Below are positions 15,943 to 46,537 of a stretch of 64,000 nt of DNA, one piece after another. This DNA comes from Geosiphon pyriformis uo1 (taxonomy: Eukaryota > Fungi > Glomeromycota), in the NCBI GenBank assembly GCA_016748015.1, contig JAAOMT010000675.1:806001-870000 (forward strand), read 5' to 3'. The notes beneath the pieces were generated by a model, which made no database searches, was not told the DNA's origin, and was given only the letters and a program-made list of their open reading frames with translations. Positions within the stretch are counted from its first letter, which is position 1. Each line of letters begins with the position of its first letter. Made by a program: the position numbers and the translations under genes.

Positions 15943-16853
15943 TGTTACTCATAGAATATAGGAAGTATATTATTATTAGCAAGTAGATATTAGCCAATCA
16001 GAAGTAGATGTAGAAAATGTGAAATTTCAGAATTTCTCTCAGAAAAATTGCAGGATTCCAGGAATTTCAGAATTCTCTGGTGAGAAATTGCAGGATTCCA
16101 GAATTCCAGGATTTCTTTTATCAGGAATTGCAGGATTCCAGGAATTTCAGGATTCCTGTTGCAAGGAATTGAAGAATAGAGGAATCTCAAATATGTATAT
16201 ATAGCAGTAGTATTAGAAGCAGAAAGGAGAAGCAACACCAAGAATCCTTAGCTTAGTTACCACAATCCTCAATAAATAATTATTCATTATATCAAATTCA
16301 TTCTTTACTATCAACACTTCATGTTGATATTAACTGACACTTAACCATACTGGAACAATTGTTCTTAATCACAGCTATTAATGAGATACTAACTTGCAAA
16401 TTGCCTTGGCTTATTTCTTATTTTCTCTTTTATTTTTTCTTTATTTTCTTTGTTGTCTACTAACTTGATTAAAGAATTTACTTCTGAAAGACTTATAAAA
16501 GAATAAAACTTACTTAAACAATACTTATTCTTGGAAAACTTACAGAAAAATAAACTTGCTTAAACAATACTTACTCTTGGAGGACTTATGAAGGAACTGA
16601 TGTCAGGAAACAGCACTGATATATACTTACAAAGGATATCATACCAGGAGAATCATCAACCATTAAGCTGAGCAAAGCAATTGACGAGACTACGGTTTCA
16701 GGAAACTACTGATAAACTGTTACCATTGAATCTCTGTTTATTATACAAAGAACTCAATTGGAAAACCTTCAGATTATCATTGTCACCCATCACTTTGAGC
16801 ACCAAGTTATGGATTTGTTATTCACTCAACACCCCAAAGAATCATCTGTAACA
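15943..16853 (+). repeat. 5' LTR of A (911 bp)
   Basis: Direct repeat of 32988-33866; contains CCAAT (~15994), a GGAATTCC-like array, TATATA (~16196) and AATAAA (16271). Confidence 0.95.
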
Positions 16854-16855
16854 TT

Positions 16856-16872
16856 TGGTGTTTCCTGTGAGG
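16856..16872 (+). promoter_or_regulatory. Primer-binding site of A (TGGTGTTTCCTGTGAGG)
   Basis: TGG 2 nt after the LTR end; differs only by transitions from B's PBS TGGTGCTCCCTATAAGG. tRNA identity not established. Confidence 0.8.
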
Positions 16873-16914
16873 TATAATCCTACAGAGAACCAGCATTAAC
16901 AACACCATTCAAAT

Positions 16915-19900
16915 GTGGCAGAATCAGAAATTATAGGAGCCAATCACTTAGGATTCACAAAATTCTTGTTTCAACAATACAGCCAACAATTAGGATTAAA
17001 CAGTAATCACTACCCAGCCGAATCAGTCTTCAACTATTATGTCAATGATAAAATCACAGACTGTTTAGGAGGAACCATTAATATTGAGTTAGCAAGAGAA
17101 AATTTTTATACAGAATTATTTCAACACACCAGCTTACCAAGAAATCACAGTTTTGTCCCAATTATCAGGGAAATTAATCAAACCATTAAAAAATACACAC
17201 AACAACAATTTCTCATTACCTACACAGACAAAAGTAAAAGAAGAATACAAACATCAGCAGCAACACCAAAAGGAATACAGTTACCTAGTTGGAAGAAACA
17301 CAGAGTAGAATCACCAACTGCTCCATTATATCACTACACATCTGGAAGTGCCATCAACATTTCATCAGCAGAGGCATCCACATTAAACATGACATTAACA
17401 TTTAGAAGATTTCAGTTCCAAAGCAAACAACAGAAAGAAGACTTACTAGGACCATACGACACATATTTTGAAGGATTTAAATCACGATTCCCAATGCTAT
17501 TAGAAATTTGATTACCAATACCCCAACCAAATTTCGGAGCCACTACTCCATGGGAATTATTAGAGAAAAAAAAAGAAAGAAGTAAAGATCAAGGATTCAC
17601 TTACCAAAACCCGATCTCAGAAAACTCGAAATTCGGAACCTCAAACATTCAAACTCCACAAAATCCAAACATAGAAGATCTGGAAATTGAAACTCTAAAT
17701 ATTAGAACTCAGCAAAATCAAAACAATCAGAACTCCGATTTAATTAATCAGCCAAACATACCTCCAAATATTGTCATCAATCACCCACCAATTGATCTGA
17801 TAGTCGAACCCATTCAGCAGCCATCTCAACAACCAAATCTGCAAATCTAACAGCCACAAGAACCACCTTAGCAACCACCACTACAACAACAACTACTACA
17901 GCAGCCACAACAACAATTAAACATAAACCAAATGGCCTATGCACCCATTGCCAAGTTAGAAAACTTTACCAGCGAAGAAGATGATGCTCAAGCATGGATT
18001 AATAACATCTCCAAGACCATCATAGCAAACAATTGGAATAATGCCAGAGCCTTACAGGCAATCCCATATTTTCTCAAAGAAACCGCCAATTCTTGGTACC
18101 AGAGTTTAGCCACCAGACCATAAACATTCTTACAATTCAAAACTGTCTTTCTGGGATATTTTAGCAACAATAACAGTATTAATTGTTTAACCAATACTTT
18201 CACTACAATCAAACAGAATAATATTGAAGCAGTCACAACATATCTAAGACGCTTTCATAAAATCCTATGCCAAATTCAAGTCATCAATGCCATGTATTTT
18301 ACAGAACCCCAGATCTTCAACCAGTTTATTTGTGGCCTGCGCAGTAGCATTTTGCAACACATATGCCCATTACATCCAGCCAACCTTCAAGCCACAGTCA
18401 CACACACTAGAGATTTCGAATTAGCTGAGCTAGAAGCCAACCATGCTCAAGCTGTAAATTTAGTAATAAATAGATCATCTAATTTGGATTCCAAATTAAA
18501 GCAAATCAGTGATACCATCAATCAGAAAATAGAGGGATACTTAGCTAATAATAGCATGATTTATCAATCTTCTCAACGGTGTAATAATCAGGGAAACGCG
18601 AATTATTTCCAAAATCAGTCATGTCCAACATTGTCATCCAATTGGCAGTGGCAGCCAGAGATGCGTGTCTGCCATAACTGTGATAAACAAAGCCACATAA
18701 GAGCCAACTGCAATGTTTATAACTGACAATCGAAAAATCAACATTGAAACCCCAATCACCAATTCCAAACTCCAAATTAATATCAAAATCAAGAGCAAAA
18801 TCAAAACACTTATCTGCCAATGATGCAGCAGCCAATTTATCAAGCATCAGTATATCAAATCCCAGTTTATTAACCGCAGCCACCAGCAATATATTAACCA
18901 CAGCCATTCGTAATATATCAACCACAGCCACAAGTAATTTATCAACCTCAAACCATTCAAACACTGCTCCAAAACTTACTTCAACACGGAACCCAAAGAC
19001 TGAAAATGACACAACAAAACTGGAAATTGGCAATGGTTGTCCACCAACTGATTCCCAGTTTCTTCAACTCACTATTAGAATTGCATTTTTGGAATTCGGA
19101 TACTGGTGCCATCCAAAACTCGAATTCTCAGAACTATTTAAGTCTCCTGGTTACCTCAGAAGATGCCACACCCAGCAACCCAGAAACCAACCCAATCTAA
19201 AAACTTACCAGCAACATACCACCAGCAATGGTCACTGAAAACAAAACATTAGCAGCCATCTTCTTGTTTGAGTTTGAGAAAACCACCCCAGTCTCATTAT
19301 TCAGTGGAGCCGCTCTTGAAGAAAAACCCATTACAACAATGTATACTGATGCCAAAATAGATGGCCACTCCATCAAATTAATCCTAAACAGTGGTTTAGT
19401 AGGCAGCATTATTACGCAATAACTCATGGATCAATTAGGTTGCCGAGTTGATCATGCTGCTAGTGCTTGTATAATTATTGCTAATGAAGTGATCAAAACT
19501 CCAATCAGCAAAATTGATGATTTTCCATTCGAAATCAATGGCATTATAATACCCATTAAAGTCTTGGTAATAAAAGCCACACAATACCAGGCTTTCATGA
19601 GCAATGATTGGTTGTTGAAAACTCATGCTACCTTTGATTGGACCACCCAAGAACTACAATTAATCTTTGGTGGTTAGCATACTCGAACACTGGCCACTTG
19701 TGGCCACTTTAAGCTAAGTAATGCCCAACCACTCATAGAGTTTGAAGAAGAAACAAGGAAACCTATCTGAGAAGCCTACCAAGTCTTGTGGGCCAACCAA
19801 GACCATAACGAGTTGCCACTAGTACCTTCTTGGAATGACAACGTCAAAGGAAAGCAAAAAGAAACAAAACTTATTTGGATCTCTGACCAAGCTTGGGAAA

Positions 19901-22900
19901 CAAAAAATGACTACAATAAACTAGCCGATTGGAAATGGAAAGAGGAAGATAATGGAAAGGAAAAAGGGAAAGAAACCATACTGGAAGAGACCACCAGCAC
20001 CAGTAAAAGAACCAGTGGCTGGACCAGTTCATACTCAGTCCATGAGCCACTACCACAACTGCCATATATTCCACTCAAATGCAAAGACTGTGAAAAGAAA
20101 CTTTCTTCCATAGGAGCATGGATCGCGCCAGACGAAGACCACTGGACATGAATCTATTACTATTGTAAGCCATGTTATAAAAAATGCTATGGCTACCCAA
20201 TAAAACAGGGCAAATGGAACAATGAACCATGTCTTGCTTGTGGTGAACAACTGTTCAACGAAGGAATGTGGAATGACATTCCTGGTTAAGGAGGAACATG
20301 TGATGCTTCGTGCCAATACATAATCCTTATTAGTAACTGAGTGAGTCGTGGTACCCCAATTATAGCAGCATGGCACCAAGCACTCGATTATTTAGATGGT
20401 TACCTCCATGACAAAAAAGAAATCTGGCAAATGACCAATGCCAAAGTAGAAGATGCTACACCCAATAAAATACTGGAAATTAAGAACAATCCCCCAGAAC
20501 TGGTCGATATCATTTATATTCCTAATCCAGATGCTTTTATAGACAAAAAAACAGGTCCAAAAGACTTCCACAAATACTACCAAAATTTGGTACCTACAAG
20601 AGAAGAGCAGAAGCAGTGTTTAGAACAACTAAACACCCAATTATGTGACCACTGTTTGATTCCTTATAACTTCCAATATTGTAATAAATGTGACCTCATT
20701 TACAATCCACTACCACACATGATCTACATGATTCCAGAGGAAATTGAACCAATTAGTAGCTGCACATCCGAATTGGAATCACCATTCAATTTCAATTCAA
20801 ACTCTGACAATGATGACAATAAAAACACTGGTTCCAGCTCCGTTCAAATTGGCGATAACAACAACAACAATTCCAACTCAAATTCAAACTCTGATCCAAA
20901 ATATGAACACTATATTGCACTGCCAGACTTTTCCAAAAAACAAGAGTTAAAATAATATAGTGACAATAATGAAGGTATTATGCCAGAACATGCATATAAT
21001 ACTGATGCCAGATTTGATTTGAGATATTCAGGAAAAGATGCCATCAAATTGGAACCACATTTGTGCACTTGTATTGATCTGAAAGTAGCATTAGAAATCC
21101 CAGAAACAACAATGATTCAACTAGCATCTAAGAGTAGTTTAGCAAAAAGAGGAATTAATATAAGAGAAGAAATAATTGACGCAGAATATATAAGAAATAT
21201 CATTGCTATGCTACAAAATGACTCTGAAAAGGCCTATATCATAGAGCCAAACGAAAAAATAGCACAGGCAATATTCCTGCCTCTGGTGAAAATAGCACAG
21301 TTAGTATTAGTGGAAAATAAGGAGGAATTAGGGATAACAGCAAGAGGAATACAGGGATTTGGATCAATGGGTAGAATAAATGTATCAGTCAATATGGCAA
21401 AAGAAAAAATTGTTGACCAAAGAGAAATTATCTCAATGGGTCAAGCAATTTTTATTTCACCATATGGCCAGTACATAGTAGGAATAAAATGGGAAGTAAA
21501 AGAACAGAATTAGATTTTTGAAGCAGAACCAATTCTTTGTGAATCAGGAGAGATTGAATTTATCAATTTTCATATACCAGCCAAAGATTACAACCACATC
21601 AAAATTCCCATCTATAATAACATAAAAAATATTATAGTAATACCAGCCAGAACCACCATTGGATACTTAAGTACTGAAATAGAAGATCAACCACCAAGCA
21701 CTATTCTGGACTTTCTACAGCTTTGTGAATATGTCAATATCACATCACAAACAATATATGGACAAAGCAAATGTTATTTGCTTCAACCAGAGCAATTAGA
21801 ACAAATGAACATGAGAAACTTAGACCCACTCTAATGTATGCAGCTTAAGATGTTGCTCAACAATTTCAATAACATTTTTGCCAGTAAAAATGAGTTTGGC
21901 CGAACTAACATCATCCAGCATCAAATCAAAACTGGAAATGCAATGCCAATTAAACAAAGAGCATACAGAGTATCACCAGCTAGCCATGAGATCATTTGTC
22001 AAGAGATAAACCAAATGCTTAACAACAGGCTAATTCAACCATCAATGAGTCCATAGTCATTACCAGTAATACTCGTCTGGAAAAAGAATAGAAAAATCCA
22101 ATTTTGTGTGAACTACAAGAAACTCAATGGTGTAACTTGTGGAGACAGCTATCCAACCCCAAAAATACAAGAATTGTTCGATGCTTTCGGCGGAAACAAA
22201 TGGTTCTCAACATTAGACTTAGACAGTGGTTATTGGCAAGTAGCCATGAATTCAGCCAACAAGGAGAAAACAGCATTTACCACTAAAGAAGAGAATTTCA
22301 AATTTGAAGTAATGCCCTTTGGCTTAACCAACACTCCAACCATTTTCCAATGACTAATAGAAATCGTTTATACTGGCTTATTGTGGAAATCAGTAGTTGT
22401 ATACTTGGATAACACCAATGTATTCTCAAAAACATTTGATGATCATCTTCATCATCTTCAACAAGTGTTCGAAAGACTAAGAAGAACAGGACTAAAATTA
22501 AATGCAACAAAGTGTTTCTTTGGCAAGACAGAACTAAAATTCTTAGAACACATAGTCAGCAAAAATGACATCAAAATGGATTCAGAGAAAATAGAGATAG
22601 TAAAGAACTTTCCAGTACCAACTAATGTGACTGAATTAAAATCATTTTTGGGATTTACAAGCTATTATCAATGCTTTATAAAGAACTTTTCAAAGATAGC
22701 TCAACCACTCAATAATCTGCAAACCAAGAATACAAAATATGAATGGACAGAAAGTTAACAAGAAGCTTTTGATATTCTGAAAAAAAAGCTTATTCAAGCT
22801 CTAGTACTGATCTATTCAGATTACAACAAACCATTCATTATTACCACCGATGCATCAGGCCAAGCATTGGGAGCAGAGAACATCCAGTAGCATATGCCAG

Positions 22901-23117
22901 CCAAGGTCTAACACCAGCCGAAAAAAACTATGGAACACCAGAACTAGAACATTTAACAATCTATTGGGCAGTCATAAAGTGGAACAAATACTTGAGCCAA
23001 AAGTTTGATATATACACGGATCATAAAGGGTTAACATTACTTTAAAAGCAAGAATTTGATAACGGCTGCCAATTCAGATAGAAAATAATACTCTTACGAT
23101 ATACTTATACTATATAC
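16915..23117 (+). pseudogene. Single-frame Gag-PR-Cys-rich-dUTPase-RT-RNase H polyprotein of A (last ~20 codons at 30789-30848)
   Basis: ORF fragments at 16915, 17932, 18292, 19006, 19228, 19426, 19786, 20341, 20980, 21838, 22108 and 22381 all share one frame. CHNCDKQSHIRANC, LILNSG, DARFDL...GFGS, MPFGL, YLDN, TDAS. A ~28-bp deletion after 22876 relative to D. Confidence 0.92.
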
Positions 23118-23773
23118 TGTTATGGGTTGAAGTAACAAGCTAATAGATAGCAAAGGAGAACAGAATTTTAGGGTGATAGAAATAATCAAAGGGGATTCAA
23201 CTTTAATGAGCAAATTAAATAAGTATAGATTCAATGTGCAAGATTAGTCTCATAAAATATTTCAGTCACTATTCTTTTCAAAAGGTAACAAGGGAATTTG
23301 AAAGTAGAGGGATAGTCTGTACTGTCAACAATTGATCATTACTGGTATTAATTCTATGTCTTCACGTTGGCGCTCTTAGAATTCAATATCAGATATCAAC
23401 TTGTGCTTTTCAGTTATGTTTATACAAATAGTCTTCAAATATTACAATTATTCAAACAAGAAAAGGCCAACAAGTAATCTTTTATCCTAAGATGTTTGGA
23501 TACTTGAAGGTAGGAAAAGAGAAATTAACAATAAGAGAGTGATTAAGATGAAAGTTGTTATTTTTATTTATTTGATTCTTGTCTGAGAAATGATTTTCTA
23601 CAGCTAAAAGACTCATCACTTATATAGCTATTGAAAGTGGTTAACGACCAGATTAACGATTAGGTTAATGATTAAGTCAATAATTACTATCTAAAAATAG
23701 AGTGGTTAATTATATGACATCAGTGACTAATACATGTGATAACTAATAAAAATTATGGGTTTTAACCATAACA
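23118..23773 (-). repeat. 3' LTR of B (656 bp)
   Basis: TGTTAT...ATAACA; purine tract GGAGAAGATGA precedes it on the minus strand. Confidence 0.95.
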
Positions 23774-24390
23774 TCATCTTCTCCAAAGAGATTGAGCTCC
23801 AGCGAAATCAAGCTATTTATAAGATATTCTAATTGAAAGATTTTGTCTAACTCAAAACTAACTAGTTTGTTAAAGTCTTTTGTGGATAGAGTGTATAGTA
23901 CTTGAGGCAAAATAAGCTTTGTATCCAAGAGACCAAATCTTTGTATAAGAGTTTTGGCTCTTTTTGCAATGATCAAAACTTTTGGGACATCTAAACGTAT
24001 AATGCCCACTTGTATTTCTGAAGTTGTTTTCTTCATGAGCTTCATTTCTTCTATGATTTTACCAAGATGACCATAGAGTTCTAGTTGTCTTCTATATGAC
24101 AAGTTTTTGTCTATGGGCAAGATTTCCTTAATCGTTTTTCCAATTATCATGGAAGGTATAAGTATTGCTGCTGTTATGCTTTCCAGCAAATACTTATCTA
24201 TTTTGCTACCAATTTTTTCTCTTCTGGTAGTGGTTTTCTTTGGTCTAATAACAGTATGTGTTTCACTGTTATCTGTTATGGTGGTTTGTTTTCCAATGGT
24301 CAGAGTAGCATTTGGGTAATTTTTAATCCAGTATTCATGGAGAGTATAGAAAGCGTTTTGAATGTTTTGATCTAGGAAATAATTGTTCAT
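23743..24390 (-). CDS. ORF3 of element B, unknown function (~215 aa, uninterrupted)
   Basis: Open frame 23743-24486 with first ATG at 24390 (MNNYFLDQ). Lies between the integrase stop and the 3' LTR, reading through the PPT. Confidence 0.7.
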   Translation of the reverse strand: MNNYFLDQNIQNAFYTLHEYWIKNYPNATLTIGKQTTITDNSETHTVIRPKKTTTRREKIGSKIDKYLLESITAAILIPSMIIGKTIKEILPIDKNLSYRRQLELYGHLGKIIEEMKLMKKTTSEIQVGIIRLDVPKVLIIAKRAKTLIQRFGLLDTKLILPQVLYTLSTKDFNKLVSFELDKIFQLEYLINSLISLELNLFGEDDVMVKTHNFY

Positions 24391-24431
24391 GTTGATTGAA
24401 GATACTTTTGTTTTGGGAATGGTGCATTTAT

Positions 24432-25743
24432 TTATATCTGATTTTTGTTGATCATTTGGGTTGGTATTACCACAACAGGTAACCAATCAGGCCGTTTGTA
24501 ATATTTCTTGAGTCATGTGCCATTAATAAGGTGATCATTAAAGATTATTCCATATTGATTTTGTAAGATATAAGAACCATTGTTCAAAACTTTGTTGACT
24601 ATAAAGAGTCTTTTTCACTAGCTAGAGAATTTATCACCATAGACATTGTCTCTGTCTGAATGGTATTCTAAAACTAAATTACCAACACTTAAGGAAAGTA
24701 TTTTATATATTTTCTTTTTTTTAAGCTTCTCTTGAAATTGTTTTATCTTTTCAAAGGCAATTATCTGTGCTTCTACTAATGAGTCAAGAATGGTACCAAG
24801 TCTTCTTTGCAAAATGTCTTTGTAATTCTCTATTGTTATTTCTTCAAAGAGTATTGTTTTAATGTCAGTTTCTATTAGGGTTGCCATTCGTCTATAAAGT
24901 AGATAAAAAGGTTCATAACTTGTTATGTCATGATTTACAGTTCTATAAGCAAACAAGGCTGAAGACAGTACTTTGTCCTATAAGTTTGTTTCTTCGCTGG
25001 TTTTGGCTAGGGTTTTACATAGTGTTCTATTGAAATGTTCCACTAGGCCATTTGTTTAGAAGTGATAAAAAGAGGAAAGTTTGTGATGTATTCCACATTT
25101 TTCTGCAAAGTTCTTTGACAAGTGTACTGAGAAAAGCTCTTCTTCTGTCAAATAAAAGTTCTTTGGGACAGTTATGGTAACAAATAATATCTTCATAAAT
25201 GAAATTGGCTATTAAAACTGTTGTTTGGTCTGGAGTGGCTCTTGCTTCTACCCACTTTGTAAGATAGTTGGTAGCTGTGATAATGTATCTGTTGCCATCA
25301 AGAGTTATTGTTAAAAATCCAACAACATCTATACCAATTCTGTCAAAGAGTTGACCAACAGAGATTGGATGAATATCTTTTTTGCAATTGGGTTTTTCTC
25401 TTCTTTGGCAGATATCACAGGTTTTGATCTATTCAACAATGTCTTTTCTCAAGATAGACCAATAATAGCAAGCTAGAGTTTTCTGAATTGTTTTTGTTTT
25501 TCCAAAGTGTCCAGCTAATGGATCAGTGTACATATTGTAGATCATAATTTCTCTTTCTTCAAATCTGATGACTCTTTGGGGGTGGTCAGAATCTTTTCTA
25601 TTTCTTTTATAAAGTTAGTTCTGGCGAATCAAATAGAAATTTGATTGTTTGTGCAAATGTTCTTTTTGTTGTTGTGTGTATTTCAGTGGGTATTGTTCTT
25701 TACCCAAAAATTCTATTAAGACAGAGTAGTTGTCCAAGTCTAT
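24432..25743 (-). pseudogene. Integrase of B
   Basis: GHFG...CDIC, FDRIGIDVVG, NYLTKWVEA, TNGLVE, LFAYRT, GPY/F-like C-terminus; stops and frameshifts. Confidence 0.88.
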
Positions 25744-25812
25744 TATCGTGTTTGTCAAAAAAGAGAATTACTAATAATTAAGTTGGTTTGGTTTGAGAGG
25801 GTTGTTCTGTTA

Positions 25813-28497: not shown

Positions 28498-30040
28498 TTT
28501 AAAGGCTGATAAACAGTGGCTTCAACTAGGGGATCCTCTCCAAAGAAATTGATGTTGGCATGATTGGGTCTTTAATTGGAGACATTGTTGTTGTTGTTGG
28601 GTCTGTTGTTTTGGTTGTCATTGTTTCTGGAGGAGACAGTGAAAGATTGTTGCAATCTCTGGAGAAATGTCCAGTTAATCCACATCTATAACACATAAAA
28701 GGGCTATGATTTTGCTGTCTTTGGTAAGGGGGTTGCTGGGGCTGATTAAAATGGTTTTCAAATCTGGGTCTTTGTGGTTGCTGGTTATCTCTAACTGCTT
28801 GGGCTAATGGTTCTAATAGCTAAGCAAGATTTGCTGTAAGTTTATCTATTAATTGTTCATTTGGATCTTGTGTCTGGGCAGCAAAAGAAGTAGCGGCCAT
28901 TTAAGGAATAGGAGCAATAACAGGAACAGGAGCAAAAACTGGAAGTGTGAATCCCAAATGCATTTTTTAATTGTCTTCAATTCTTTGGGCGAGTTCAATG
29001 GCCATATCTATGGTGGGATTATTTTTTAAAGCCAAGAAAGACCAAAGAGCATATGATAAATCAGTTCTCAATCCTTTTGTGAAGGAGTAGATCTTTTGCT
29101 TTTCAGTCCAGTTTCTACCAGAGTCTACACACTTGATGAGTTTTCTGATTGCTTTGGCATATTTGGTCACAATTTCACCAGAACCTTGGGTTTTTTTTTC
29201 TAATTCCATATGCTATTTGGATATTAAAATGGGGGCTCTGAATTTGTTTTCAAACTGGGTAATGAAAAAGGTATTGTTTTCTCCAATATTTGCTGGGGTC
29301 CATCTAACAATTCTTTGTTGAACACCAGCATTGGTTTCTTGTAAAAACCAGGTAGCAGGGAAGCCTTGGGGATAGCCACCAATGATTTGGAATTTGTATT
29401 CATCATCATACTGGTTTGCAGTGACTGCTCTTTCAAAATTGTCCAACCATTCAATTGGATCTTGGGCATCACCTCTGAATAGGGGTAGTGGGGTGTTGTT
29501 TCTTTGTCCCAAAGCAGTTTGTATGCCTTGAAGGGCGGCCAGAATGTTTACTTGCATTGGATTTTGGGCTATTGATTCAGAAGTTACTGTTTGTGTGAAG
29601 TGCTCTGATTTACTTAAGAAGAAATCAAAAATAGGGGCTGTTTAGTAGCTTTCTTCTTCTGTTTCAAGAGGAGCTACTGTTGATTGATGGGCAACAATCC
29701 AAATGTGGATTTAATGATTCAGATATTCGAAATCAGAAGGCTGTTGTTCAAAGGTTGTAGAATATAAGAGCTGATTGATACTGTTGTTTTTTTCTTCAAA
29801 GTTGTCTTCAAAATAAGCTTGATCAAAGTAATAAGTTGTATAAGTTGTGTAGGTTTTAGCTGAATGTTCATTCAGGAACCAGTTCCAAAAGTTTTGGAAT
29901 TGTCTACTGGATTGTTCTTCAAGGGGGAAGCAAATCAAGCAGAATGACAAAGGATTGAGTTCAATAAAGTCTAAATTGTTTCTGTTGTGTGCTTCAAAGT
30001 GTTTTGCTGATTGTTATGATAGATATGAATAATTACCCAT
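28491..30040 (-). pseudogene. Gag of B
   Basis: ATG ~30040 (MGNYS); PLFRGDAQDPIEWL, FTKGLR, CYRCGLTGHFSRDC; ends 'VYQPLNW*' after a UUUAAAC site. Confidence 0.85.
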
Positions 30041-32316: not shown

Positions 32317-32974
32317 ATGGTCAACATGACAAAAAAACACAGAAAAATGGAAATTATTGACAACATCTATTCATTAGCACAACAAATCTTTCAATTAATC
32401 CAACACCAGAAGGTGGAAATTACAATTAATCAACAAACCATTTGATACAAAAATACTGCAAGGATACCACAACACAAAGTACAGAGAAAACTCAAAAATG
32501 TTGTTGACAAGATCATAACCAAGGTAAAATTGGTCATGAAAGAACAATGAATAGTCGGATTACACCAAGAACTTATTGGAGAAACTTGGACTTGGTAGAT
32601 GCAACAATTTCTGAAAAACTATTGTCATTTTCACTTGGGACAACACATAAATATCCAGAATTTGTACACCAACAAAACAAAATGGTTATTTGACACAACA
32701 ATACTGAGACAACTAAAACAATTTGTGGGAAAGAACAATCTAACCACACAAGCTCGAGCCATTTACCAGCTATATATGATTTCAAAACCAACCAAAAATC
32801 TTACTCAACACAGTAATAAATACAGTTATGAATAATCAATTGGGAAAAATGACCAATGCCCAATTTGAAGAACTACAAACTCAAATAACACAAGTAATAC
32901 TCGAAAAAGAAGTTCAAGAAATAATTTAAGAGAGAGAATTAAAAGAGTTAGATTTCAACAGAGCTCAATATTAA
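32317..32974 (+). pseudogene. ORF3 of A (unknown function)
   Basis: ATG 32317; homologous to ORF3 of C and D (CHFHLGQHINIQ...ARAIYQL...SIGKMTNAQFEEL...DFNRAQY*). Confidence 0.75.
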
Positions 32975-33866: not shown

Positions 33867-33870
33867 GCAG

Positions 33871-36800
33871 CTTGGTTTTTACAGACTGGGGAAATCAACT
33901 CTCTCATTGCAAAAGCTGCTAACGGATTGTCTTTCATTATTCTTGGTGGTAACTTTAATGAAAATGGTTTGAAAAGAAGTGCTAGTTTTAAAAATTGTGT
34001 CAGTTTGGGACTGGTCAATACTTTGATGGATAGTTTGGTCATGAAGAGTCCCACATGGAGGAATTCAAGGAATGTAGAAAAACCAATTGATTTTGTATTT
34101 GTTTCGTCAAATTTGGTCAGTACAATAGTTGATCATGATGTTATAGACATTAATGATTACTTTGACACTGATCATCAAGCTGTTTCTGTATTTGTGGGTC
34201 TGGGCAGTTTGCTGAACACTCAGTTGAACTCTCTTCACAGGCAAACAAATAAGGATTGCTGGAAGTTTGATTTTAAAGGTGCTGATGATACAAAGTGAAG
34301 CGAGTTTAAAGAAGCTATGGCAGCCAATGCTGCCATGTTCTTTAATGGTTTTATCACTTCCGTATGATTCTTTGACTTGAACATGATGTGGAACACAATT
34401 TGCAAAATTATGATACTGTTAGCTAATAAAGTATTCAGAAAGAAATGGTCTAAGGGTTATGATAGTGTTTTTACCAAGGAAGCTTCTAAATTTTATAAGC
34501 TAGAGCTTTTAGTATTAAAAATTGCTAAGGCCTCTTATGAGGAAAATATTAATAAGTTTGTTCTTTTTATGGAATGCTGGGATTCTTTGGACAATGTTAA
34601 GGCTTTAATTGTACAGGAAATTGTGAACTTTGGTGTGGGTTTTAATTGTGTGCACTCAGTTTTTTTAGTATGTGAAAAACATATCATGCCTCCAAGCTTG
34701 CTGAGTCTTTGTGAACTGAAGAGTTGAAAATAAGATCAGCTGTTAATAGTCAAATGGAGAATTTTGTAATCAACAAAGGTAGCACAATCAGGAGTGTACT
34801 GGAATGCCCTTTTTGGAAAATGGTTTTAGACCATCTGGTAGTTGAGAATGAACTGATTCTGGAACCAAACCTAGTTAAGACCAAGGTTAACACAATTATA
34901 GAAGGCTGAACCAGAAAGCATAATATGGTGGAGAATTTTTCTGATGATTGGTTGTATCAATATTAGTCTTTAGAGTATGTTGTTAATGACACTTTTTCAA
35001 ACATAATATGTTTGGTTAATTTTGATGAGCTACTTGGAGTGGTTTCTAATCTGCCTAATGGCAAAGCTGCTGGTTTTTCTGAAGTGTCAAATGAGCTTTG
35101 GAAGCATTGTGACAAATCAGTCTTGGACATGTTTTTGGTGCTTTTAAACTTCTGTTTGTCTTTTAAGTCAGTGCTTGGTACTTGGAAAGAAGCTTGGGTC
35201 TTAATGATTCCTAAACCATATGAATGGGAAAAAGTTCTTACAAACACCCAACCTATTGCTTTGATTGAGACTGCCCACAAAATTCTTTTCTAGATTCTTT
35301 CAGACAAGATTTCTTTGGTATGCAGCTCTTTTAATATCTTACATGGGAACAATTTCTTAGTTTTTAAGGGTATAACAATGCAATCTCCTATTTTTGCCAT
35401 TGGTTCTGTTATTGAGGATGCTTTGGAAAAGAACCATGAACTCTAATTAGTCTTGTAGAATATGTGAAAAGCCTACGACTTTGTTGGATGGGAGCATCTT
35501 AAGAACAGTTTGGTCAGAATAAAGATGTGTGACAAGTTCATTAGATTTTTTGGTGGCATTCACAATGGTCATGTTAATAAAGTAATAACAGATTTTGGTT
35601 TGACAGATAGATATCAAGTACATGATGATTTGGATCAGGGGGAAGTGTTCTTACCACTTCTTTGGCATATATTTTATGATCCTCTTTTGTGTGAAGTCAA
35701 AAGACAGGAAAGCATATATGGATATAAGATAAACTCTCATTTTGTTGCCAGGACTGGTCATTTGGAATCTTAGACTGGATTAACGTCTTTTCTTGTTGCT
35801 AGTGCTTTTGTTGATAACACAATCTGAATTGGTAGTAGCCAAACTGCAACCCAACATATTCTTGATGTTGCTAGTGAATTTTTTCAAATCAATGACATTT
35901 CTATTAACAATGACAAGACAGTGACAATTCTTATTAATTGCAAAGTGGCATGTCCTAATTTTTCTATTAGTGGTTCACCTATTTCTATTGCCAAAAAAAG
36001 AGAGTCTCATCACTACCTGGGAATTTTTTTGTTGACTGAGAGTTTTTCAAGGCCTAGTCTGGCTAAGACAGATGCTGATGTCAAATTTTTTGCCAATCTG
36101 GTTCTAAGGAAGACTATTTTTAATAAGCAGTTTTCGTATCTTGTGTCAACAGTTCTCCACCCCATTGTTAGCTACAGAACACAATTCAGTTTTGTTCCTA
36201 TCAGTATGTGTAATAAGTGGGATTTTTTGATTTGCAGGGGCTTAAAGCTGAAGTCTGGTCTATCTTTTAATTTTTCCAATAACACGCTTTGTCATCCCTC
36301 ATTGTATGGCTTAAAAACTTTTGAGCAAGTCCAAGCTGAAAGCAAAGTTGCTTCTATTATGTATTTTGCAAACTCTGTTGGAATTTTGGATTGTTTGTTT
36401 TTACACAGGTCCCATGACTTGCAGGTTCTGTTTTGGAGCCCACTTCACTCTTTGGCATTCCCAGTTTGTATTAAAGTCAGTGCTTCTAATAATTTTTTGG
36501 CAGATGTGATTTGTATTTTTCTTGGGTGTGGTCTGTTTTTGAGTGGTTAAGTGAATAATTCTTTCCATTTTCATGGTGGTACTCTCATGTCATCTGTTCT
36601 TGGCAGGTCTGATTACTTTGGATTTCTTCCATTCTTTCAAAGATATGGTATTGCTTTTGTTAAACAGCTTTGCTGTAAGAATAGAGCTGTTTTTAATTGG
36701 AAAACATTCAAGCATTAAAAAAGGCTGGACTTACATGGCCCTGTTTTTGAATGGTTTAGGCTTTCTATTGACTTTCTTGATAGTATAGCTTCTTTCCCTG

Positions 36801-37055
36801 CCCAATTTTTGCTTGTAATTGGTACTGAGCATTTGGATATTTTGAAATCTAGTGAGTTTGGACTGATTTATAATTGGTTGCTAGATCTTAAGACTGACAG
36901 CCTTTCTGTTTATACAGATGGATCTCTGAAGGGATTAGGGAGTGTTAACATGAGAGCTGGTGCTGTAGTTTTTTTTGAAGATATAAGCTTGGGTCTGAGG
37001 GTCAGAATTTTTGGTTTGATGTCTTCTACTTTGGCTAAATTGCAGGTCATCATGT
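33871..37055 (+). pseudogene. LINE ORF2 segment 2 (endonuclease C-half, RT, start of RNase H)
   Basis: ILGGNFN, TDHQAV, GKAAG, IPKP, QGEVFLPLLW, AFVDNT (FVDD-type), HYLG, VYTDGS. Confidence 0.9.
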
Positions 37056-37845
37056 TGTTACAGTTCAAAAATTTAATAGGAATTATAAATAATATAAATT
37101 AGCCAATCATGAAATAGCACAGCAACAATTTATAAAAAGAAATGATTTACAAATAACAGCAAGCACTATTTTACAATAGCATCAAGCACTATTATGCAAT
37201 AGCAGCAAGCACTATTTAAAAATAACGGAAATAGAGTATTACAAGATATTATTTTGTAAAACAATAATTATATATATATACAATAGTTTTTAATAATGAA
37301 AAAAGACAAGCTTCAACAAGAAGCAACAAATATCTAAATAAAATCTTATTTAAAAAGAATTAATAAAAAAAATTAAATGAACATCACAATTGCAAGATTA
37401 ACAATAGAATTCACATACCTTCTCTAGCAAATAAAACTATCATTCTATTTTTAAACCCTTTGGAAGAATAATTCCTGATCAAAATTATTCATGTGGTTAC
37501 TAATTAAATTGAAAGAAACTTTATTATATACTTAGGGAAATTGCAAAAAGGCTATTAATATTCTGTGTTTTTAGATTAGAGAAACACATCAGACAATTGC
37601 AAGAATAGCTTCAGAGAAGACTCCAAAACAGTGGGTAGATTTCAAATTAGTCTCTGAAAAGGAGTACAAAACATACAAAGACAACTAGAATTAAAAAGAA
37701 AACTTACATCACAACATTAAGAGAAAACCTTTAGTATATTATCATTAATATCCAACACATAAAATAGAGGAACTCACAAAAGACTGATTGCAATTAAAAT
37801 GGGAGATCAACAATTAAAATATACCAAAAAAACCATCCTGTAACA
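37056..37845 (+). repeat. 5' LTR of C
   Basis: TGTTACA...TGTAACA; CCAAT box; three CAAGCACTAT units; (TA)n TATA region. Confidence 0.95.
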
Positions 37846-37926
37846 TTTGGTAAACCCTACGAGAAAAGAAAATCAAAAAAAAATAATAATTAACAATAAT
37901 TTATTGCTAAAAAGGAAGAAACAAAA

Positions 37927-40900
37927 GTGGCAACAAAAACTCCTACCCTTACTGTTCTTGAATTCTGTCATGCTATTTACACACAAAATCAAAGTGATCT
38001 TAGATTACCAGAAGGGTGTTGTCTAACAAAATCTGCTCTTACTTATTATATCAATGCCAAAATAAATTACCACATAGGAAAAGAAGAAAAACCACATGAC
38101 ATGAAACTTAGATTGTATAGAGAATTATCACAATACACTACAAAAGAAGTAGCAGTAATAGCTGCAACTATTGTTAAAATCTATTACAAAATTGAGCAAT
38201 ATGCCAATGAAAATTTTTTAATATCCACAAAGAACACTAGAGAATGCATCCACAATCCAGAAATTAATTACGAAAAAAATCATCAAAAATTAGGAACACC
38301 CACCCAAATGCCCAAGAAAAATGTTGTGCAATCAGTAAAAAAACAATGCCTTTATTTGTCAGAAGAAAAATCTTACTATTTTTCCTCAGATAATAAAATT
38401 TAACTCTCATTAAAAGCTGCATCATCATCTACATTAACTCCACAAACACTAAAAATTCCTAATTATACTGATAAACTTAAACAATGTGATTGGGGAAATA
38501 TACCAATAACAGAAGAATATTCATTGCTATTCCAAAAACTCCTTTTTCAACCAAAATTTAAAGTGGGGTTTGAAAACTGTGAAGAGAAATCTGAATCAAA
38601 ATCCAGAGAAACCAGTGAAAAAACAAGCACAAAACCAGTTACAAAAACAAACAGCCAGTTCAGAAACCAAGAAACTTGTGATCAAAAGGAAGAACTGAAT
38701 ATAAGAGAAGTCACTTTTAGGGGCGCTCAAGAAAATATTATTCCACCTCCTCTTAGACCAATAAACCCACCAGCAGAAAACAATGACAAAATGACCACAC
38801 CTTATATTATGCGATTAATGGATTTTTCAGGAGAGAAAGAAGAAATGGATGTGCACATATGGCTTAAAGAAGCATAAAAAGCCATTCAGACAAATAACTA
38901 GAACGATCAAAGAGCAATCCAAATGTTATCTTTCTTCCTGAAAGGCATTGCTAACTCATGGTATCAAAGCTTAAAAACAAAACCCACAAGCTTTGCCAAA
39001 TTCAAAAATACACTCTTAGAATATTTTAGCAATCTAAACGCCGTAATCCAACTGTAGAATGAATTCAATACTATCAAGCAAGATATAAGTGAAACTGTCA
39101 TCCAATACCTTGCTTGATTCAATCAAATTTGCCATTAGATTGAAGTGATTAAGCAAGGATACTATATCAAGCCTCAGGTTCTAAATCAATTTATTAGAGG
39201 ATTAAAAAGCAGCATTTTAAGAAAAGTACATCCTGCCCACCCTAATTCCTTACCAGAAGCCATTATGCTCGCCAGAACTCTTAAATTGGCTGAGAAAAAA
39301 ACTAACCATAGTCAAATAGTTAACATAGTGATTGAAGAAAACAAGACAGAAACTTTAGAAAAAAAAGTAGCACAATTAGGAGAAGAACTCTCTAAAAAAA
39401 TAGAAAGTTACCTCATCTCAGACCCAGGAAGAAATAACACATACCAAACACCTCAAAGATGCAACCAGAAATTCAGCAGCAGCCAAAATAATTACTCATT
39501 GCATTAGAACTTCAGAACAGAAACATGCATCTGCCATTTTTGCAAATGCATAGAACATTTGATTGGCCAATATTGAACACAAATGATGTAAGAGGTATGC
39601 GAAAATAATTATTATGCATCCCCCCAAATGCTCAGAAATCAATACACGCCAATATCACATCAATATCTCACTATGTACCAAAATCAAAGAACTTACCAGC
39701 AACAACCAGCAATTCCAAATCCAAACTGGCATCTAGAGTTTTGAAGCCAACCAGTATTAGGCCAAAACGCAATTATTACTAGAAATCTTAATCATGTAGG
39801 ACCTAATCAGCAAGCAAACACAAACTATCCAAATTTCCAGCCAACTTACCTTAATATATCAGAAAACTTAAATCTTGGAAATATTAATGATAACATACCT
39901 GAAACTGAAAACATCACTAATAGCCAGAACTTGATCCAAACAATACCACTAGCCATTATCATGGAAGATAGCAGTCTCACAGCTATTTTTTCTTTTGAAT
40001 TAGAGGAAAAAGAGACTATGTTTAGTGGAGCAGCATTGGATGAGAAACACCCAATCACTGTTATGTACACGGAAGCAAAAGTAAACAACACCAATTAAAC
40101 TCATCTTAGACAGTGGATCTGCCGGAAGCATTGTGTTACTTCAATTAGTAAACCAACTGGGTTTTAAAGTTAATCACACTATGACATTCCAAATTATAAC
40201 AGCCAATAGAAGTATCAAGCTGTCTCATGGCAAAATCGACTCATTTCTTTTTGAAATTAATGGCATAATAATACCTACAAAAGTATTAGTAATAGACACT
40301 ACACAATATCAAGTATTAGTAGAAAATGACTGGTTAACAAAAGCCAATGCCACATTAGACTGGACCATCCAAGAGTTTCTTATCAGCTATAATGGCCACT
40401 ATGCCAGAATTCCAGTCACATGTGGTTACTTCCAAAAACCCAGCACCAACCAAAGACCCATCTTCGAATTTGAAGAAAATTCAGCCCTACTAGCCATCGA
40501 AACTTATCAGCTCTTGTGAGCTGATGACCAAAGAACAAAACTACCAGCCGTACCAACTTGGAGGAGTGAAGGAAGATCTAAATAGAACCAGGTAAGTCCA
40601 TGAAGAAACTGCCAGCAATGCAGACCAAAACTAAAATGTTTAGTTTACAATAAGAAACTTTTGTCCATGACTGTGTACAGTGCACCAGATAAAGACCCAA
40701 GAAACTCCACCCACTACTATTGTAACCATTATAACAAAAAAAAATACAGTTACCCAAAAAGACATGAAAAATGGGATGAAAAACCATGTCTTGCTTGCAA
40801 AAAACTGTTGCCAAAAGAATGTGACTGGATTGACATGCCAGGCAGAGGAGGAATGTGTGATACAACTTGCCAATATACGATCCTCATCTGTAACTGGATA

Positions 40901-43627
40901 AGAGGAGGAACACTGTTTGAAGCTGTATTCAACAGAGCATTAAGAAGACTGCAGTACTACTCACATGATGAGGATGAGTTATACAATACTGCACAGACCA
41001 AAGTAAGAGGAGGAACTGCTGAAAAAATATGACATTGGAAAATGTCAGCCAAAATAGCTAATAAAGTTGCCAACTACAACATGTTCGACCCAATAGACAA
41101 ATTCCAGGAAAACTACCAACAGCTATGTCTCACTCACCAAAAGCAAAAATAGTATCTCACCCAGATTAACACTTATCTTTGTGAAGACTGTCTTATCCTG
41201 TACCAAAGTCAGTGCTGTAAAGAGTGTTAATACAAAAGAGACTTAAAAAGAAAATTGAAAATTGAAAATCAACAGTACCAAAATCAATCAATAAATTAAC
41301 AAAACTTATCTGACAGTCTCGAGTCAGAAAATATTTTAGCCTATACCAATCTAGATCAAGAGATTAGCATCCAGTACTATGACAATAGGCACTTAGGAAT
41401 AGTACCCAAAAGAGTCCATCCAACCGATACTGGATTTGATCTATAGTATCCAGAAGACCAATCCACAATATTGCCACCCAGGAGTATTACTAAAATCGAT
41501 CTGAAAATAGCAGTTGAAATTCTGCCAAAAATAATGGTTTAAATAGTGTCACAATCAAGCCTCACAAAAAAAAAAATAAGCATTCAAGGAGGAATAATTA
41601 TCTCTGAATACACTGGAAATTTGATGGTTTTGTTACAGAACAATTCAGAAAAACCTTATACCATTAAATCTAAAGAAAAAATTGCACAAGCAATTTTTTT
41701 ACCATTGGTAAAAATTGGGAAATTTGTGCCAGTGGAAAATCATAAGGAATTGATACAAACAACAAGGGGAACTTTTGGTTTTGGATTGACAGAAAAAAGA
41801 ATTGAAGCAAATTTCACTGAAACAATAGAAGAAAAAGGCAAATTAATTAAAACCAAGTGGTCAATTACACTCATGCCTTATGGAAAATCAGAAATTAAAA
41901 TAAAAAGAACAATAAAAAATATAAATCTAATATTTGAGCCCCACCCAAAAACTTGTCAACAGTTTCTCATAGGACTTACTAACTTTTTTATTCCAGCTGA
42001 TAAAACACAATGGATAAAAATTCTTATCATGAATACTACAGAAAAGCTCATATACATTCCAGAAAACACCATCATGAAATATCTTGGAACAGAGCTAGAA
42101 AATGTGTCAACATTACAAGAAATTCTAAATTTCTCAGAAATCATCTTTTACTGTGAACTTACTTCAATAAATTGGCAACAACCATTAGAATGCTATCAAT
42201 TTATGCCAGAAAAATTGGCCAAATTAAACATTAGAACAATGAATCCAGACCAACAGTGACAATTAAAAGCATTAATTTTAAAATACTCTAATATATTTTC
42301 ACAAAATGGTAAATTTGGAAGAATCAACTTGGTTCAACACCAAATTTCCACTGGAAATGCCAGACCTGAAAAACAACGCACTTACTGTGTCCCACCAATG
42401 GAGCATAATTTTATCAGAGAAGAAATCCAAAGCATGTTGGAAAAAGAAATAATTCAACCATCAATGAGCCCATGGTCCTCACCAGTTGTTTTAGTAAAGA
42501 AAAAAAACAGAAAAATTAGATTTTGCGTCGACTATTGCAAACTAAACAGCAAAACAACCAAAGACTCATATCCAATACTATTAATTGACAAAATCTTCAA
42601 CATTTTTGGAGGAGCAAAATAGTTTTCTACACTTGACTTGACCAGTAAATATTGGCAAGTGGAAATGGACCCAAAAAACAGACATAAAACAGCATTCACA
42701 ACACAAAATGGCAATTATGAGTTCAATGTAATGCCATTTGGATTGACAAACACTCCCATAACATTCCAAAGACTAATGAATGTAATTTACTCTGGAATTC
42801 TGTGGCAATCCATTGTTGTTTACTTGGACAATACAAATGTTTTCTCACCAAAATTCACAGATCATCTCCAATATTTACAACAAGTTTTTAAGAGATTGAG
42901 ACACACTGGACTTAAATTAAATTTAGAAAAATGTTTCTTTGGGAAAAATGAGCTAGCATTTTTAGGACATGTAGTTGAAAAAGATGTAATAAAACCAGAT
43001 CCATCAAAAATAGACAAAGTGAAAAATTTTCCAGTATCTCAAAACATTTCAGAAGTTAGAAGCTTTTTAGAACTCGCATCTTACTACTGCCACTTTATAG
43101 AAAACTTTTTAAACATCACCAAACCTCTTAATTATTTACTATCCAAAAATGTGAAATTTGAATGGACTGAAACACATCAAAAAGCTTTTGAGTACCTTAG
43201 ACAAAAGCTCATTGAATCACCAATAATGATCTATTCAAATTTCAACAAGAAATTCATTTTGGCCACAGATGCCTCTGGAACTAAACTTGGAGCCATTTTG
43301 TCACAAAAAAATAATAATGGAAGAAAATGTGTAATTGCTTATGTCAGCAGAATTCTTAGTACAGCAGAGCAAAACTATGCAGCATACAAACTTGAATGCT
43401 TAACAGTAATCTGAAGTTGTGTTTACTTTGACACATACTTATGGTACAAGCTCTTTGATATTATCACAGATTATAGAAATTTGGTCTGGTTAAATAACAA
43501 GAAAGCGCTGAAAAAAAAATATGTCAAATAGTCACAAATATTAGCACCATATGATTATATTATCAAATACAAAAAAGGTACCAAAAATGCCAATGCTGAC
43601 TGCTTGTCACGAATGAGACACACATAA
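37927..43627 (+). pseudogene. Gag-PR-Cys-rich-dUTPase-RT-RNase H polyprotein of C
   Basis: LILDSGSAGS, YYCNH..PCLAC..CDTTCQY, DTGFDL...RGTFGFG, MPFGL, YLDN, ATDASG, KNANADCLSR then stop at 43625-43627. Confidence 0.92.
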
Positions 43628-43658: not shown

Positions 43659-45010
43659 ATGAACAATTACCTTTACAAAAATCTTAGCCAATACTTGAGA
43701 ACACTAATTAAGTTCCAGAAATTATCAAAACATTATTTTACTCAAAACCACATACTTTATTACCAGAATTAACAAAATCCAGATAATCTATTGAGAGTTA
43801 TAACCGAAAATAAAATAAAAAACTATCTTATTTAACATGCACTCAGATATTCATTTAGGCCACTTTAAAAAAGAAGCAACTATTCAACGTACAACTAGTC
43901 ATTATTATTGGCCAAAAATGCACTTAGATATTATCCAATACATAAAAAATTGTGACTCATGCCAATAAAGAGAAGGAACAAAAACAACAGAACCACTAAG
44001 ACCCATAAAAGTTGGACAATCATTTGATAGAATTGGAATTGATTTAGTTAGACCATTACCAATAATAGCAAGAAACAATCATTATATTGCAGTAGTAGTA
44101 AATTACCTCACTAAATGGCCAGAAGCCAGAGCCATTCAAACAGCTGATACTATATCCATAGCCTACTTTGTACATAAAGATTTAATTTGATGCCATGGAT
44201 GTCCATAAGAATTAATGTCAAACCAAGAGACACATTTCGTAAACAGTACACTAAATGAGCTCAGCCAAAGATTTGGAATTAAACGACTACTATCATCACC
44301 ATACCACCCCTAAACAAATGGATTAGTTGAATGGTTTAACCATACACTATGTAAAACATTAGCCAAAATCAGCAATGAACATGAAAAAGAATGGGATTTG
44401 TTCATACTAGCAGTTTTATTAGCATATAGGACATTAAAACAAAATACTATACAATTCACACTATTTGAATTGGTTTATGAAAGAAAGGCCATATTACTAA
44501 TTAAACTTACTATTCCAACTTATCCAAATGAAATTATTGCAAAAACAACATTCTACGAAACAATACTTAGAAGAACATATGAGTTAATAAAAATTTTGGA
44601 GAACAAAAGAAAAAAAGCAGCTCAAAATATTGAACAGTCACAAGCACAACAAAAAGTGAGACATGATAACCAATTATCAGATAATATAATTAGCTATAAA
44701 ATAGGAGACAAAGTATTGTTGTATCATACTAAAACAGAAAAGCAATGGAGTGGAAAGTTTGATCACAAGTGAGATGAACTATTCTATATTCATGAAATAC
44801 TTGGCAATGGAGCATACAAGTTAAGACTAAATGAGAAAATTTTAAAAAAAGCAGCACATGGCAACCAGCTGAAATTATATTACAACAAACCAGTAATAGC
44901 AACACAAACACTTAGAATTGGAACACAAATACCACTAGTATTACCAGATCAGATTCCATAAAATATAGAACCAGTAGTTTTAAGTAAACATTATATAAAA
45001 AGATAATTAA
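43659..45010 (+). pseudogene. Integrase ORF of C (separate from pol)
   Basis: ATG 43659; HLGH...CDSC, FDRIGIDLV, NYLTKWPEA, PYHP*TNGLVE. End approximate. Confidence 0.88.
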
Positions 45011-45049
45011 TTTTAAATTACACCAAGAAACAGTTAACAAAGCATAAAA

Positions 45050-45730
45050 ATGCATGCAAAAGAGCCCAAAAAGCAGTCAGAAATTAAAACAATAACATAT
45101 ATTCTAGAAAACATTAGTAAGTTAACCCAACAACTATGTCGAAGCTTATAACAATCAAATTCAGATTTGGAAATTATAATCAATAGTTTTGAGATATCAT
45201 ATAAAAGAAAAATGATACCAAATTCTATGATAAATAATAAACCTAGTTTTGCACTATATACTACTATTGCCAAAAACAGTAACAGCTTTATCAACAAAAC
45301 CATTAAAAATTTAGGAATAGCATTGGATAATACATTGATAACAAAAAAAATGAACATAGTAGAATTAACACCAAGTATATTTGAATGGCTAAAGGAAAAA
45401 TTCTCCATTAATTATTGTTATTACCAATTGGGAAAACAATTAAACATACAAATATTATACTTAAAAGATTTAGTCAAAGTATTTAGCAAAACAATAATAC
45501 AACAATTGAAAAGTTTTATTGGAAAAACCAATAATATACTTTATATAAAAGCTGTTTACAGAATTTTGGATCCAACTATGAATCTTATAACAATTAATAG
45601 CATTGGACAATTAACCAATTTACAATTTCAAAATTTACAACAACAAATTAATAATACAGTATTAGATTATTATAGTAATATAGAAATCAATAAAGAAATT
45701 AACTTTAATTTCAACGGAGCTCAATCTTGA
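45050..45730 (+). pseudogene. ORF3 of C (unknown function)
   Basis: 187-aa open part 45167-45730 homologous to ORF3 of A and D; stop abuts the PPT. Confidence 0.75.
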
Positions 45731-45743
45731 AAGGAGAGGATAA

Positions 45744-46533
45744 TGTTACAGTTCAAAAATTTAATAGGAATTATAAATAATATAAATTAGCCAATCATGA
45801 AATAGCACAGCAACAATTTATAAAAAGAAATGATTTACAAATAACAGCAAGCACTATTTTACAATAGCATCAAGCACTATCATGCAATAGCAGCAAGCAC
45901 TATTTAAAAATAACAGAAATAGAGTATTACAAGACATTATTTTGTAAAACAATAATTATATATATATACAATAGTTTTTAATAATGAAGAAAGACAAGCT
46001 TCAACAAGAAGCAACAAATATCTAAATAAAATCTTATTTAAAAAGAATTAATAAAAAAAATTAAATGAACATCACAATTGCAAGATTAACAATAGAATTC
46101 ACATACCCTTTCTAGCAAATAAAACTATCATTCCATTTTTAAACCCTTTGGAAGAATAATTCTTGATCAAGATTATTCACATGGTTACTAATTAAATTGA
46201 AAGAAGCTTTATTATATACTTAAAGAAATCGCAAAAAGACCATTAATATTCCATGTTTTTAGATTAAAGAAACACATTAGGCAATTGCAAAAATAGCTTC
46301 AGAGAAGACTCCAAAACAGTGGGTAGATTTCAAATTAGTCTCTAAGAAGGAATACAAAACATACAAAGACAACTAGAATTAAAGAGAAGACTTACATCAC
46401 AACATCAAGAGAAAATCTTTAGTATATTATCATTAATATCTAACACATAAAATAGAGGAACTTACGAGAGACTGATTGCAATTAAAATGAGAAATCAACA
46501 ATTAAAATATACCAAAAAAACCATCTTGTAACA
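45744..46533 (+). repeat. 3' LTR of C
   Basis: Colinear 790-bp repeat of 37056-37845. Confidence 0.95.
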
Positions 46534-46537
46534 ATAT

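Follow-up and report, generated by a model that had tools for sequence, protein, structure and literature searches.

The DNA considered here is a window of 64,000 nucleotides (nt) from Geosiphon pyriformis uo1 (assembly GCA_016748015.1, contig JAAOMT010000675.1, positions 806,001–870,000 of the forward strand). Its interval 15943–46533 harbors retrotransposons with long terminal repeats (LTRs), in which Pol ends after RNase H, the integrase (IN) occupies an open reading frame (ORF) of its own, and a third ORF (ORF3) fills the space up to the polypurine tract (PPT). That these elements represent a lineage of Ty3/Gypsy type with a separate IN ORF can be stated with high confidence. The letters A–F were assigned to the elements in the present analysis, and their anatomy was resolved by self-comparison of the window combined with reading of the sequence. 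The interval is composed of A (with B nested inside it on the minus strand), a host resembling long interspersed nuclear elements (LINEs), and C; D, E, and F lie outside it. The features are listed below (PR, protease; RT, reverse transcriptase; TSD, target site duplication; coordinates are those of the window).

15943–16853 (+): 5' LTR of A, TGT...ACA ends; TSD GCAG at 15939–15942
16900–23117 (+): Gag-PR-Cys-rich-dUTPase-RT-RNase H of A, in a single frame containing premature stops; frameshift near 22875; broken by B
19333–19704, 20947–21366, and from 21799 (+): PR, dUTPase, and RT of A, respectively
30785–30848 (+): RNase H end of A and Pol stop (TAA, 30846–30848)
30911–32292 (+): IN ORF of A, own ATG; domains H2C2, rve, and SH3; a single frameshift near 31580
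32347–32930 (+): ORF3 of A, decayed and frameshifted, extending to the PPT
32988–33866 (+): 3' LTR of A, PPT directly 5' of it; TSD GCAG at 33867–33870
23118–30784 (−): element B, inside the RNase H of A; a second family, without dUTPase; TSD ATAC/ATAC
30093–30784 and 23118–23773 (−): LTR pair of B
24430–25743 (−): IN region of B, separated by 69 nt from the Pol stop (25815); start position occupied by ATA
23743–24390 (−): ORF3 of B, open for about 215 codons, extending into the 3' LTR
37056–37845 (+): 5' LTR of C; TSD ATGT at 37052–37055
37900–43627 (+): Gag-PR-Cys-rich-dUTPase-RT-RNase H of C, frameshift near 40090; stop TAA at 43625–43627
41363–41797 and 42200–43624 (+): dUTPase and RT-RNase H of C, respectively
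43659–45006 (+): IN ORF of C, own ATG, in a frame other than that of Pol; frameshift near 43820
45092–45730 (+): ORF3 of C, ATA at the start position, ending at the PPT
45744–46533 (+): 3' LTR of C; TSD ATAT at 46534–46537
60215–64000 (−): element D, family of A (77% nt identity), only the 3' part within the window; Pol stop 63199, IN ATG 63165, IN stop 61791, ORF3 ATG 61728
1–4741 (−): element E, only the 5' part within the window: LTR-like start, Gag, PR, Cys-rich stretch, and dUTPase (763–314)
5029–8427 (−): element F, a copy of the B family (76% nt identity to B) cut down to its 5' half
33867–37055 (+), continuing at 14509–15942 and 46534–47672: decayed non-LTR (LINE-like) host of A and C, with weak endonuclease and RT matches

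The complete elements A, B, and C possess LTRs with TG...CA ends, arranged as direct repeats and flanked by TSDs of 4 bp in 3/3 cases, the pair of C (ATGT/ATAT) bearing one mismatch. Three contigs skip C exactly and show the unoccupied insertion site in further copies of the LINE-like host. Each 5' LTR is followed by a site resembling a primer-binding site (PBS) and starting with TGGT (16856–16872, 37848–37864, and 30071–30087 on the minus strand); that of A resembles what we take to be the complement of elongator tRNA-Met. The domain order in the window elements is Gag capsid, PR, RT, RNase H, and then IN. In A, the region from Gag to RT is held in one frame (22 stops per 1992 codons vs. 140–141 in the other frames). 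Pfam detected RT/RNase H, H2C2, rve, and SH3 in the window proteins, and no chromodomain in any of the 12 proteins scanned. Every copy in the window is decayed: between the LTRs of the three pairs, 173 transitions stand against 3 transversions, and CpG is depleted to 0.10–0.28 of expectation; the stops in these copies probably reflect transition-driven decay. Because the LTR differences are almost exclusively transitions, no element was dated from them.

At the Pol–IN junction, A, C, and D display a common arrangement: a few codons after the last RNase H motif comes TAA, then an A/C-rich spacer, and then ATG. The spacer amounts to 62 nt in A (stop 30846, IN start 30911), 31 nt in C (stop 43625, IN start 43659), and 31 nt in D (stop 63199, IN start 63165, minus strand), so that the latter two (45–55% at the amino acid (aa) level) share its length. 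In B, 69 nt separate the stop (25815) from the IN start position (25743), which is occupied by ATA instead of ATG. The IN frame differs from that of Pol in A, C, and D; in B, IN lies in the Pol frame, behind stop codons. When the junction of C was compared with 78 contigs at a 5% threshold, with differences near contig ends unlisted, both the stop and the ATG came out free of listed changes. In all four elements A–D, IN and ORF3 have a fixed place between RNase H and the PPT/LTR.

The same separation was found in relatives with intact reading frames, represented by the best 80 of 570 metagenome loci retrieved with an alignment profile of stand-alone INs. Wherever the RNase H end and IN are both visible, a stop lies between them (53/53 loci, none fused), open intact ORFs flank the junction in most of these loci, and 40 of the 53 are out of frame. 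These data bear directly on the view that ordinary fused-Pol elements, through decay or faulty assembly, only seem to have a separate IN; the abundance of transition-made stops in the window copies and the in-frame IN of B could be cited in its favor. Such a view is refuted by the 53 separated loci, with their intact and mostly out-of-frame ORFs, and is at odds with the unchanged stop of C across the contigs; hardly any probability attaches to it.

In the remaining 27 of the 80 loci the RNase H end is not visible, and the seven of them that were checked have Pol-tail homologs upstream of IN; beyond the four window elements, such homologs precede IN in nine loci. This arrangement, the fixed position of IN and ORF3 in the four window elements, and the lack of OTU or Ulp1 domains listed among the best 120 IN homologs all count against the idea that the IN–ORF3 block stems from a DNA transposon akin to Ginger, inserted behind LTR elements devoid of IN. 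A motif near the IN N-terminus which, by eye, resembles the YPYY motif shared with Ginger1, as well as the 4-bp TSDs of Ginger1 (PMC2836005), speak for that idea, which is nevertheless very improbable.

The IN homologs were sought within 216–688 aa and the best 120 were taken; they are mostly 400–435 aa long, start with Met in 118/120 cases, and this Met forms one near-invariant column in 16 aligned homologs. The chromodomain (PF00385) is absent from the window IN and ORF3 and from these 120 proteins. Among the 120 rows examined in the search for long Pol homologs, the closest by identity (47–49%) mostly lack IN, and 11 Gag-Pol or Pol proteins end 0–6 residues past the last RNase H motif; the window RT is 42–49% identical to fused gypsy-type Pols. 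No relative was found in the viral contigs searched. The named relatives come from Rhizophagus clarus, R. irregularis, Gigaspora margarita, Glomus cerebriforme, and Cetraspora pellucida, and the hosts of the lineage are likely arbuscular mycorrhizal (AM) fungi. The layout that the first-pass annotation had proposed (Pol ending after RNase H, IN in its own ORF, a third ORF up to the PPT) holds in A, B, C, and D; the 4-bp TSDs (A, B, and C) and the lack of a chromodomain which it had noted are confirmed as well, and the related metagenome loci revealed no continuous pol including IN. As a separate observation, another gag or protease comes after IN/ORF3 in L003, L043, L045, L049, and L070, probably due to assembly through the LTR or to tandem copies.

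Phylogenetic evidence comes from two RT-RNase H trees, both unrooted and devoid of bootstrap values and named reference clades: a FastTree reconstruction of 127 rows (14 Cordylochernes rows were dropped) and a quick IQ-TREE run on 95 rows, which excluded roughly half the fused rows as well as two models of R. clarus. In the latter, 47 split-IN rows are united on one branch (SH-aLRT 98), in line with the earlier proposal of a distinct lineage with several co-resident families, and the fused-IN protein P0032 is the sister of this branch (SH-aLRT 98). Four long-tailed IN-less proteins were labelled as split only after the first tree was known. A single origin of the split-IN lineage from a fused-IN ancestor thus seems likely but is not proven. 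P0032 itself is a candidate for the ancestral state.

As for ORF3, an ORF of at least 90 aa lies near the IN stop in 32 of the 43 loci that continue for 600 nt or more beyond IN, and is absent from the other 11; three of the 32 encode other proteins, i.e., a NUDIX hydrolase (L014:1945–2886), a helix-turn-helix protein (L007:6546–6941), and a Cys-rich protein (L064:2258–2701). An alignment of 28 ORF3 members matches 638 clusters at E ≤ 0.001; of eight matching proteins looked up, four were named, all of them from Glomeromycotina. The ORF3 of A is tied to the family via D and via P0251. The predicted structure is an all-helical, compact domain of 148 aa (pLDDT 96), for which Foldseek found nothing at E ≤ 0.001 in either PDB or BFVD and the Atlas search gave no usable match; among 48,161 chains compared with the model, the best attained a VIA Z of 4.4 (rmsd 3.3, 69 residues aligned), a result that does not prove a new fold. 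Hence, ORF3 is a conserved, by prediction helical, protein family without a convincing match to any known family or fold. It may act as a basic nucleic-acid-binding accessory factor. Two proteins from Gigaspora and Cetraspora (P0300 and P0394) combine one or two ORF3 domains with long acidic tails and are possibly domesticated.

The possibility that ORF3 is a C-terminal extension of IN was considered because it begins in frame in A and D; it was rejected, as in each of the two copies a stop lies close to where IN usually ends, and the ORF3 ATG corresponds to the N-terminus of the intact P0251. With regard to an errantivirus-like env, the Pfam search of the 28 members gave no match below E 0.006 and the model is compact and helical, no dedicated membrane prediction having been run. 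Among the accessory genes called virus-like at the outset, ORF3 is conserved as a family of 638 clusters, though not universal (11 of 43 loci lack it), and nothing shows it to be virus-derived or env-like. The zinc-finger and dUTPase modules likewise considered part of the common layout belong to some families only: A, C, and E, but not B, have a dUTPase between PR and RT, and it is found in none of the 19 metagenome loci spanning PR to RT and in one of the 120 Pols listed. A conserved Cys-rich stretch without a Pfam match is also present in A, C, and E but not in B. The dUTPase and the Cys-rich insert are therefore traits of some families, not of the lineage. A dUTPase in this position was already known in gypsy elements (PMC2864245, PMC6431247).

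As a rule, LTR elements deliver IN into the particle within Gag-Pol and then release it by proteolysis. A widespread clade with a separately started IN needs another way of making and packaging it. In the proposed mechanism, ribosomes terminating at the Pol stop would re-initiate at IN on the same genomic RNA, aided, depending on the sub-lineage, by a stop–start overlap, a short A/C-rich spacer (as in the window copies), or a stem-loop; the free IN, not being cleaved from a polyprotein, would enter the particle through RNA or Gag contacts. This route to IN has roughly an even chance of being correct. The explanation as a whole (a Ty3/Gypsy lineage in which Pol ends at RNase H, IN has its own start, ORF3 is usual, and re-initiation operates) is, in turn, fairly probable.

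Several features of the junctions bear on this mechanism. Across 52 junctions, three of which have uncertain IN start picks, the IN ATG is preceded by a purine at −3 in 47 cases and followed by G at +4 in 42. The gaps comprise 11 overlaps, 9 of 0–50 nt, 20 of 51–110 nt, and 12 longer ones; in 5/52 the overlap is exactly ATGA or TAATG, a signature described for termination–reinitiation (PMC10275272). A 46-nt stem-loop lies directly 5' of the IN ATG, always on the sense strand, in 25 of the 80 loci (e.g., L016:293–338, L026:4462–4507), 20 of which were used to build the search model, and nowhere else in the 81 sources. Compensatory changes occur in six of its nine pairs (26 cells vs. 5.7 after shuffling), with the reservation that the structure was drawn from the same rows, which favors it over slid controls. 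In Rfam, nothing at E ≤ 1 matched any of 10 loci scanned, 7 of them with the stem-loop. In six loci (L017:2882, L020:2498, L028:870, L029:3290, L063:780, L068:902), an in-frame TGA followed by CTA is situated between PR and RT; we take TGA-CTA to be a readthrough context, so this TGA presumably represents programmed readthrough. As a side note, a Pol tail of 215–345 aa past RNase H is present in L026:3500–4438, L030, L050, L058, L062, L070, and L079; in this sub-lineage the tail contains a conserved Cys/His domain without a Pfam match, and the stem-loop co-occurs in most of its members.

The same lineage could alternatively express IN and ORF3 from subgenomic mRNAs arising by splicing from a donor in the LTR, from an internal promoter, or through cleavage of the genomic RNA at the stem-loop. 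The ORF3s of LTR elements are typically found on spliced messages (PMC5408684), the ATG context is strong, the gap exceeds 50 nt in 32/52 junctions, and the 40 nt preceding the IN ATG include a YAG at 32/52. At the other 20 junctions these 40 nt contain no YAG; 3 of 20 rows have GG in place of the AG adjoining the stem-loop, its pairing partner having changed as well; and a separate mRNA would not need exact ATGA/TAATG overlaps. Re-initiation is favored over this less probable alternative because the ATG context, the overlaps, the stem-loop, and TGA-CTA together point to translational control on a polycistronic RNA.

Certain observations weigh against re-initiation or against the separate lineage itself. 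The long gaps mentioned above, together with those of 31–69 nt in the window, are to be viewed against the weakening of re-initiation of the TURBS type past ~30 nt (PMC10275272), and the window spacers contain neither a stop–start overlap nor the stem-loop. The shared junction stops of C and D are, taken alone, weak evidence since these copies also have two of eight internal stops in common, and decay can yield shared stops. The ORF3 profile gives but weak matches in the six-frame translation of the window (C, E 0.0016; B, E 0.002; D, E 0.16) and none in A at default scoring. In the FastTree reconstruction, the split-IN elements hold together at only 0.545, with the fused P0032 nested inside. 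The fused-IN kin are under-sampled because the loci were retrieved with a stand-alone-IN profile. Finally, three R. clarus gene models (P0028, P0029, and P0041) join RNase H to IN.

Taken at face value, the latter models would mean that a short intron deletes the stop, fusing Pol to IN: P0028 and P0029 read from RNase H directly into IN, and P0041 has the same domain order. Nevertheless, in the two models read, the join removes the last conserved RNase H motif, only one of 41 loci has GGT as the glycine codon that a GT donor would need, and the overlapping junctions leave no room for an intron, so that this explanation is highly improbable. The layout also suggests why annotations of AM fungal genomes contain stand-alone “integrase” genes alongside RNase H–IN gene models, the latter probably arising via a false intron.

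The elements resemble non-chromoviral Ty3/Gypsy elements (Metaviridae) in the TG...CA LTRs, PBS-like and PPT sites, the Ty3-type capsid, the PR-RT-RNase H-IN order, and an IN with H2C2, DDE, and SH3/GPY-F modules. They were filed as a variant rather than a standard member because IN lies outside the pol ORF. The five IN states of Llorens et al. concern its position or loss, a free-standing ORF not being named in the passages cited (PMC2774666), and surveys of fungal elements report either one ORF or two (PMC2864245, PMC3248453). Chromoviruses differ in the chromodomain at the IN C-terminus and in TSDs usually of 5 bp (PMC6875170, one host); Gmr1-like gypsy elements differ in having IN upstream of RT. 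TSDs of 4 bp and the PR-dUTPase-RT order are already known from other gypsy-like elements (PMC6875170, PMC2864245). An IN of ~400 aa with a YPYY-like N-terminal extension is shared with Ginger1, Gypsy-1-I_RO, DGLT-A, and Athila/Tat (PMC2836005), as far as a comparison by description goes. Of these, Ginger1, although alike in TSD length, is a DNA transposon with terminal inverted repeats, no RT, CCGG-type targets, and OTU/Ulp1 tails (PMC2836005), none of which fits the window elements, and in DGLT-A just one ORF is present (PMC5633606).

Other gypsy elements carry a dUTPase between PR and RT as well, e.g., PosPlaTy3-5 of Postia, Tmt1 of Tuber, Juno, Vesta, and TelKA of bdelloids, and Burro (PMC2864245, PMC6431247, PMC5408684). 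Some of them also have an ORF3, which is env-like, GDSL, or DEDDy, with no such match here, and their IN is shown as part of pol. The UAAUG/AUGA overlaps of 5/52 relatives and the RNA structure near the junction are reminiscent of termination–reinitiation in SART1, CHV1, HvV190S, and caliciviruses (PMC10275272); those are non-LTR elements or RNA viruses, whereas most junctions here have spacers. No description of gypsy elements forming a clade in which IN stands free in its own ORF was found in the titles and abstract openings covered by the literature searches or in passages of PMC2836005, PMC2864245, PMC3248453, PMC2774666, PMC6875170, PMC6431247, PMC5633606, PMC5408684, PMC10275272, and bioRxiv 10.1101/2021.03.30.436303, Repbase Reports, GyDB, subscription journals, and supplements lying outside this search. 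We are dealing with a real variant of the Ty3/Gypsy organization that is widespread and apparently not described before.

Its junction variants (overlap, short spacer, stem-loop) offer natural material for testing eukaryotic re-initiation, and ORF3 adds a large protein family lacking annotation. A bolder picture, rather doubtful in its entirety, would comprise an undescribed and very diverse tricistronic Metaviridae-like clade in which IN was uncoupled from Pol once, internal initiation relies on a new RNA element (the 46-nt one) or on stop–start overlaps, and an ORF3 of new fold aids the expression or packaging of free IN; an IN gene standing free in this way would then be a natural intermediate on the way from Gypsy elements to DNA transposons of the Ginger1 type.

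Elsewhere in the window, a BTB/POZ domain ORF lies at 52968–53594 (−; E 6e-11), and an FAD_binding_4 ORF at 53828–54343 (+; E 2e-8), accompanied by a weak MACPF match (E 0.002). A degenerate long inverted repeat (47946–48695/50130–50921, 65%, ~800 nt) flanks an AT-rich stretch and possibly represents a decayed DNA transposon, and the GC content falls to 10–18% at 8400–13700 and 56000–60200.

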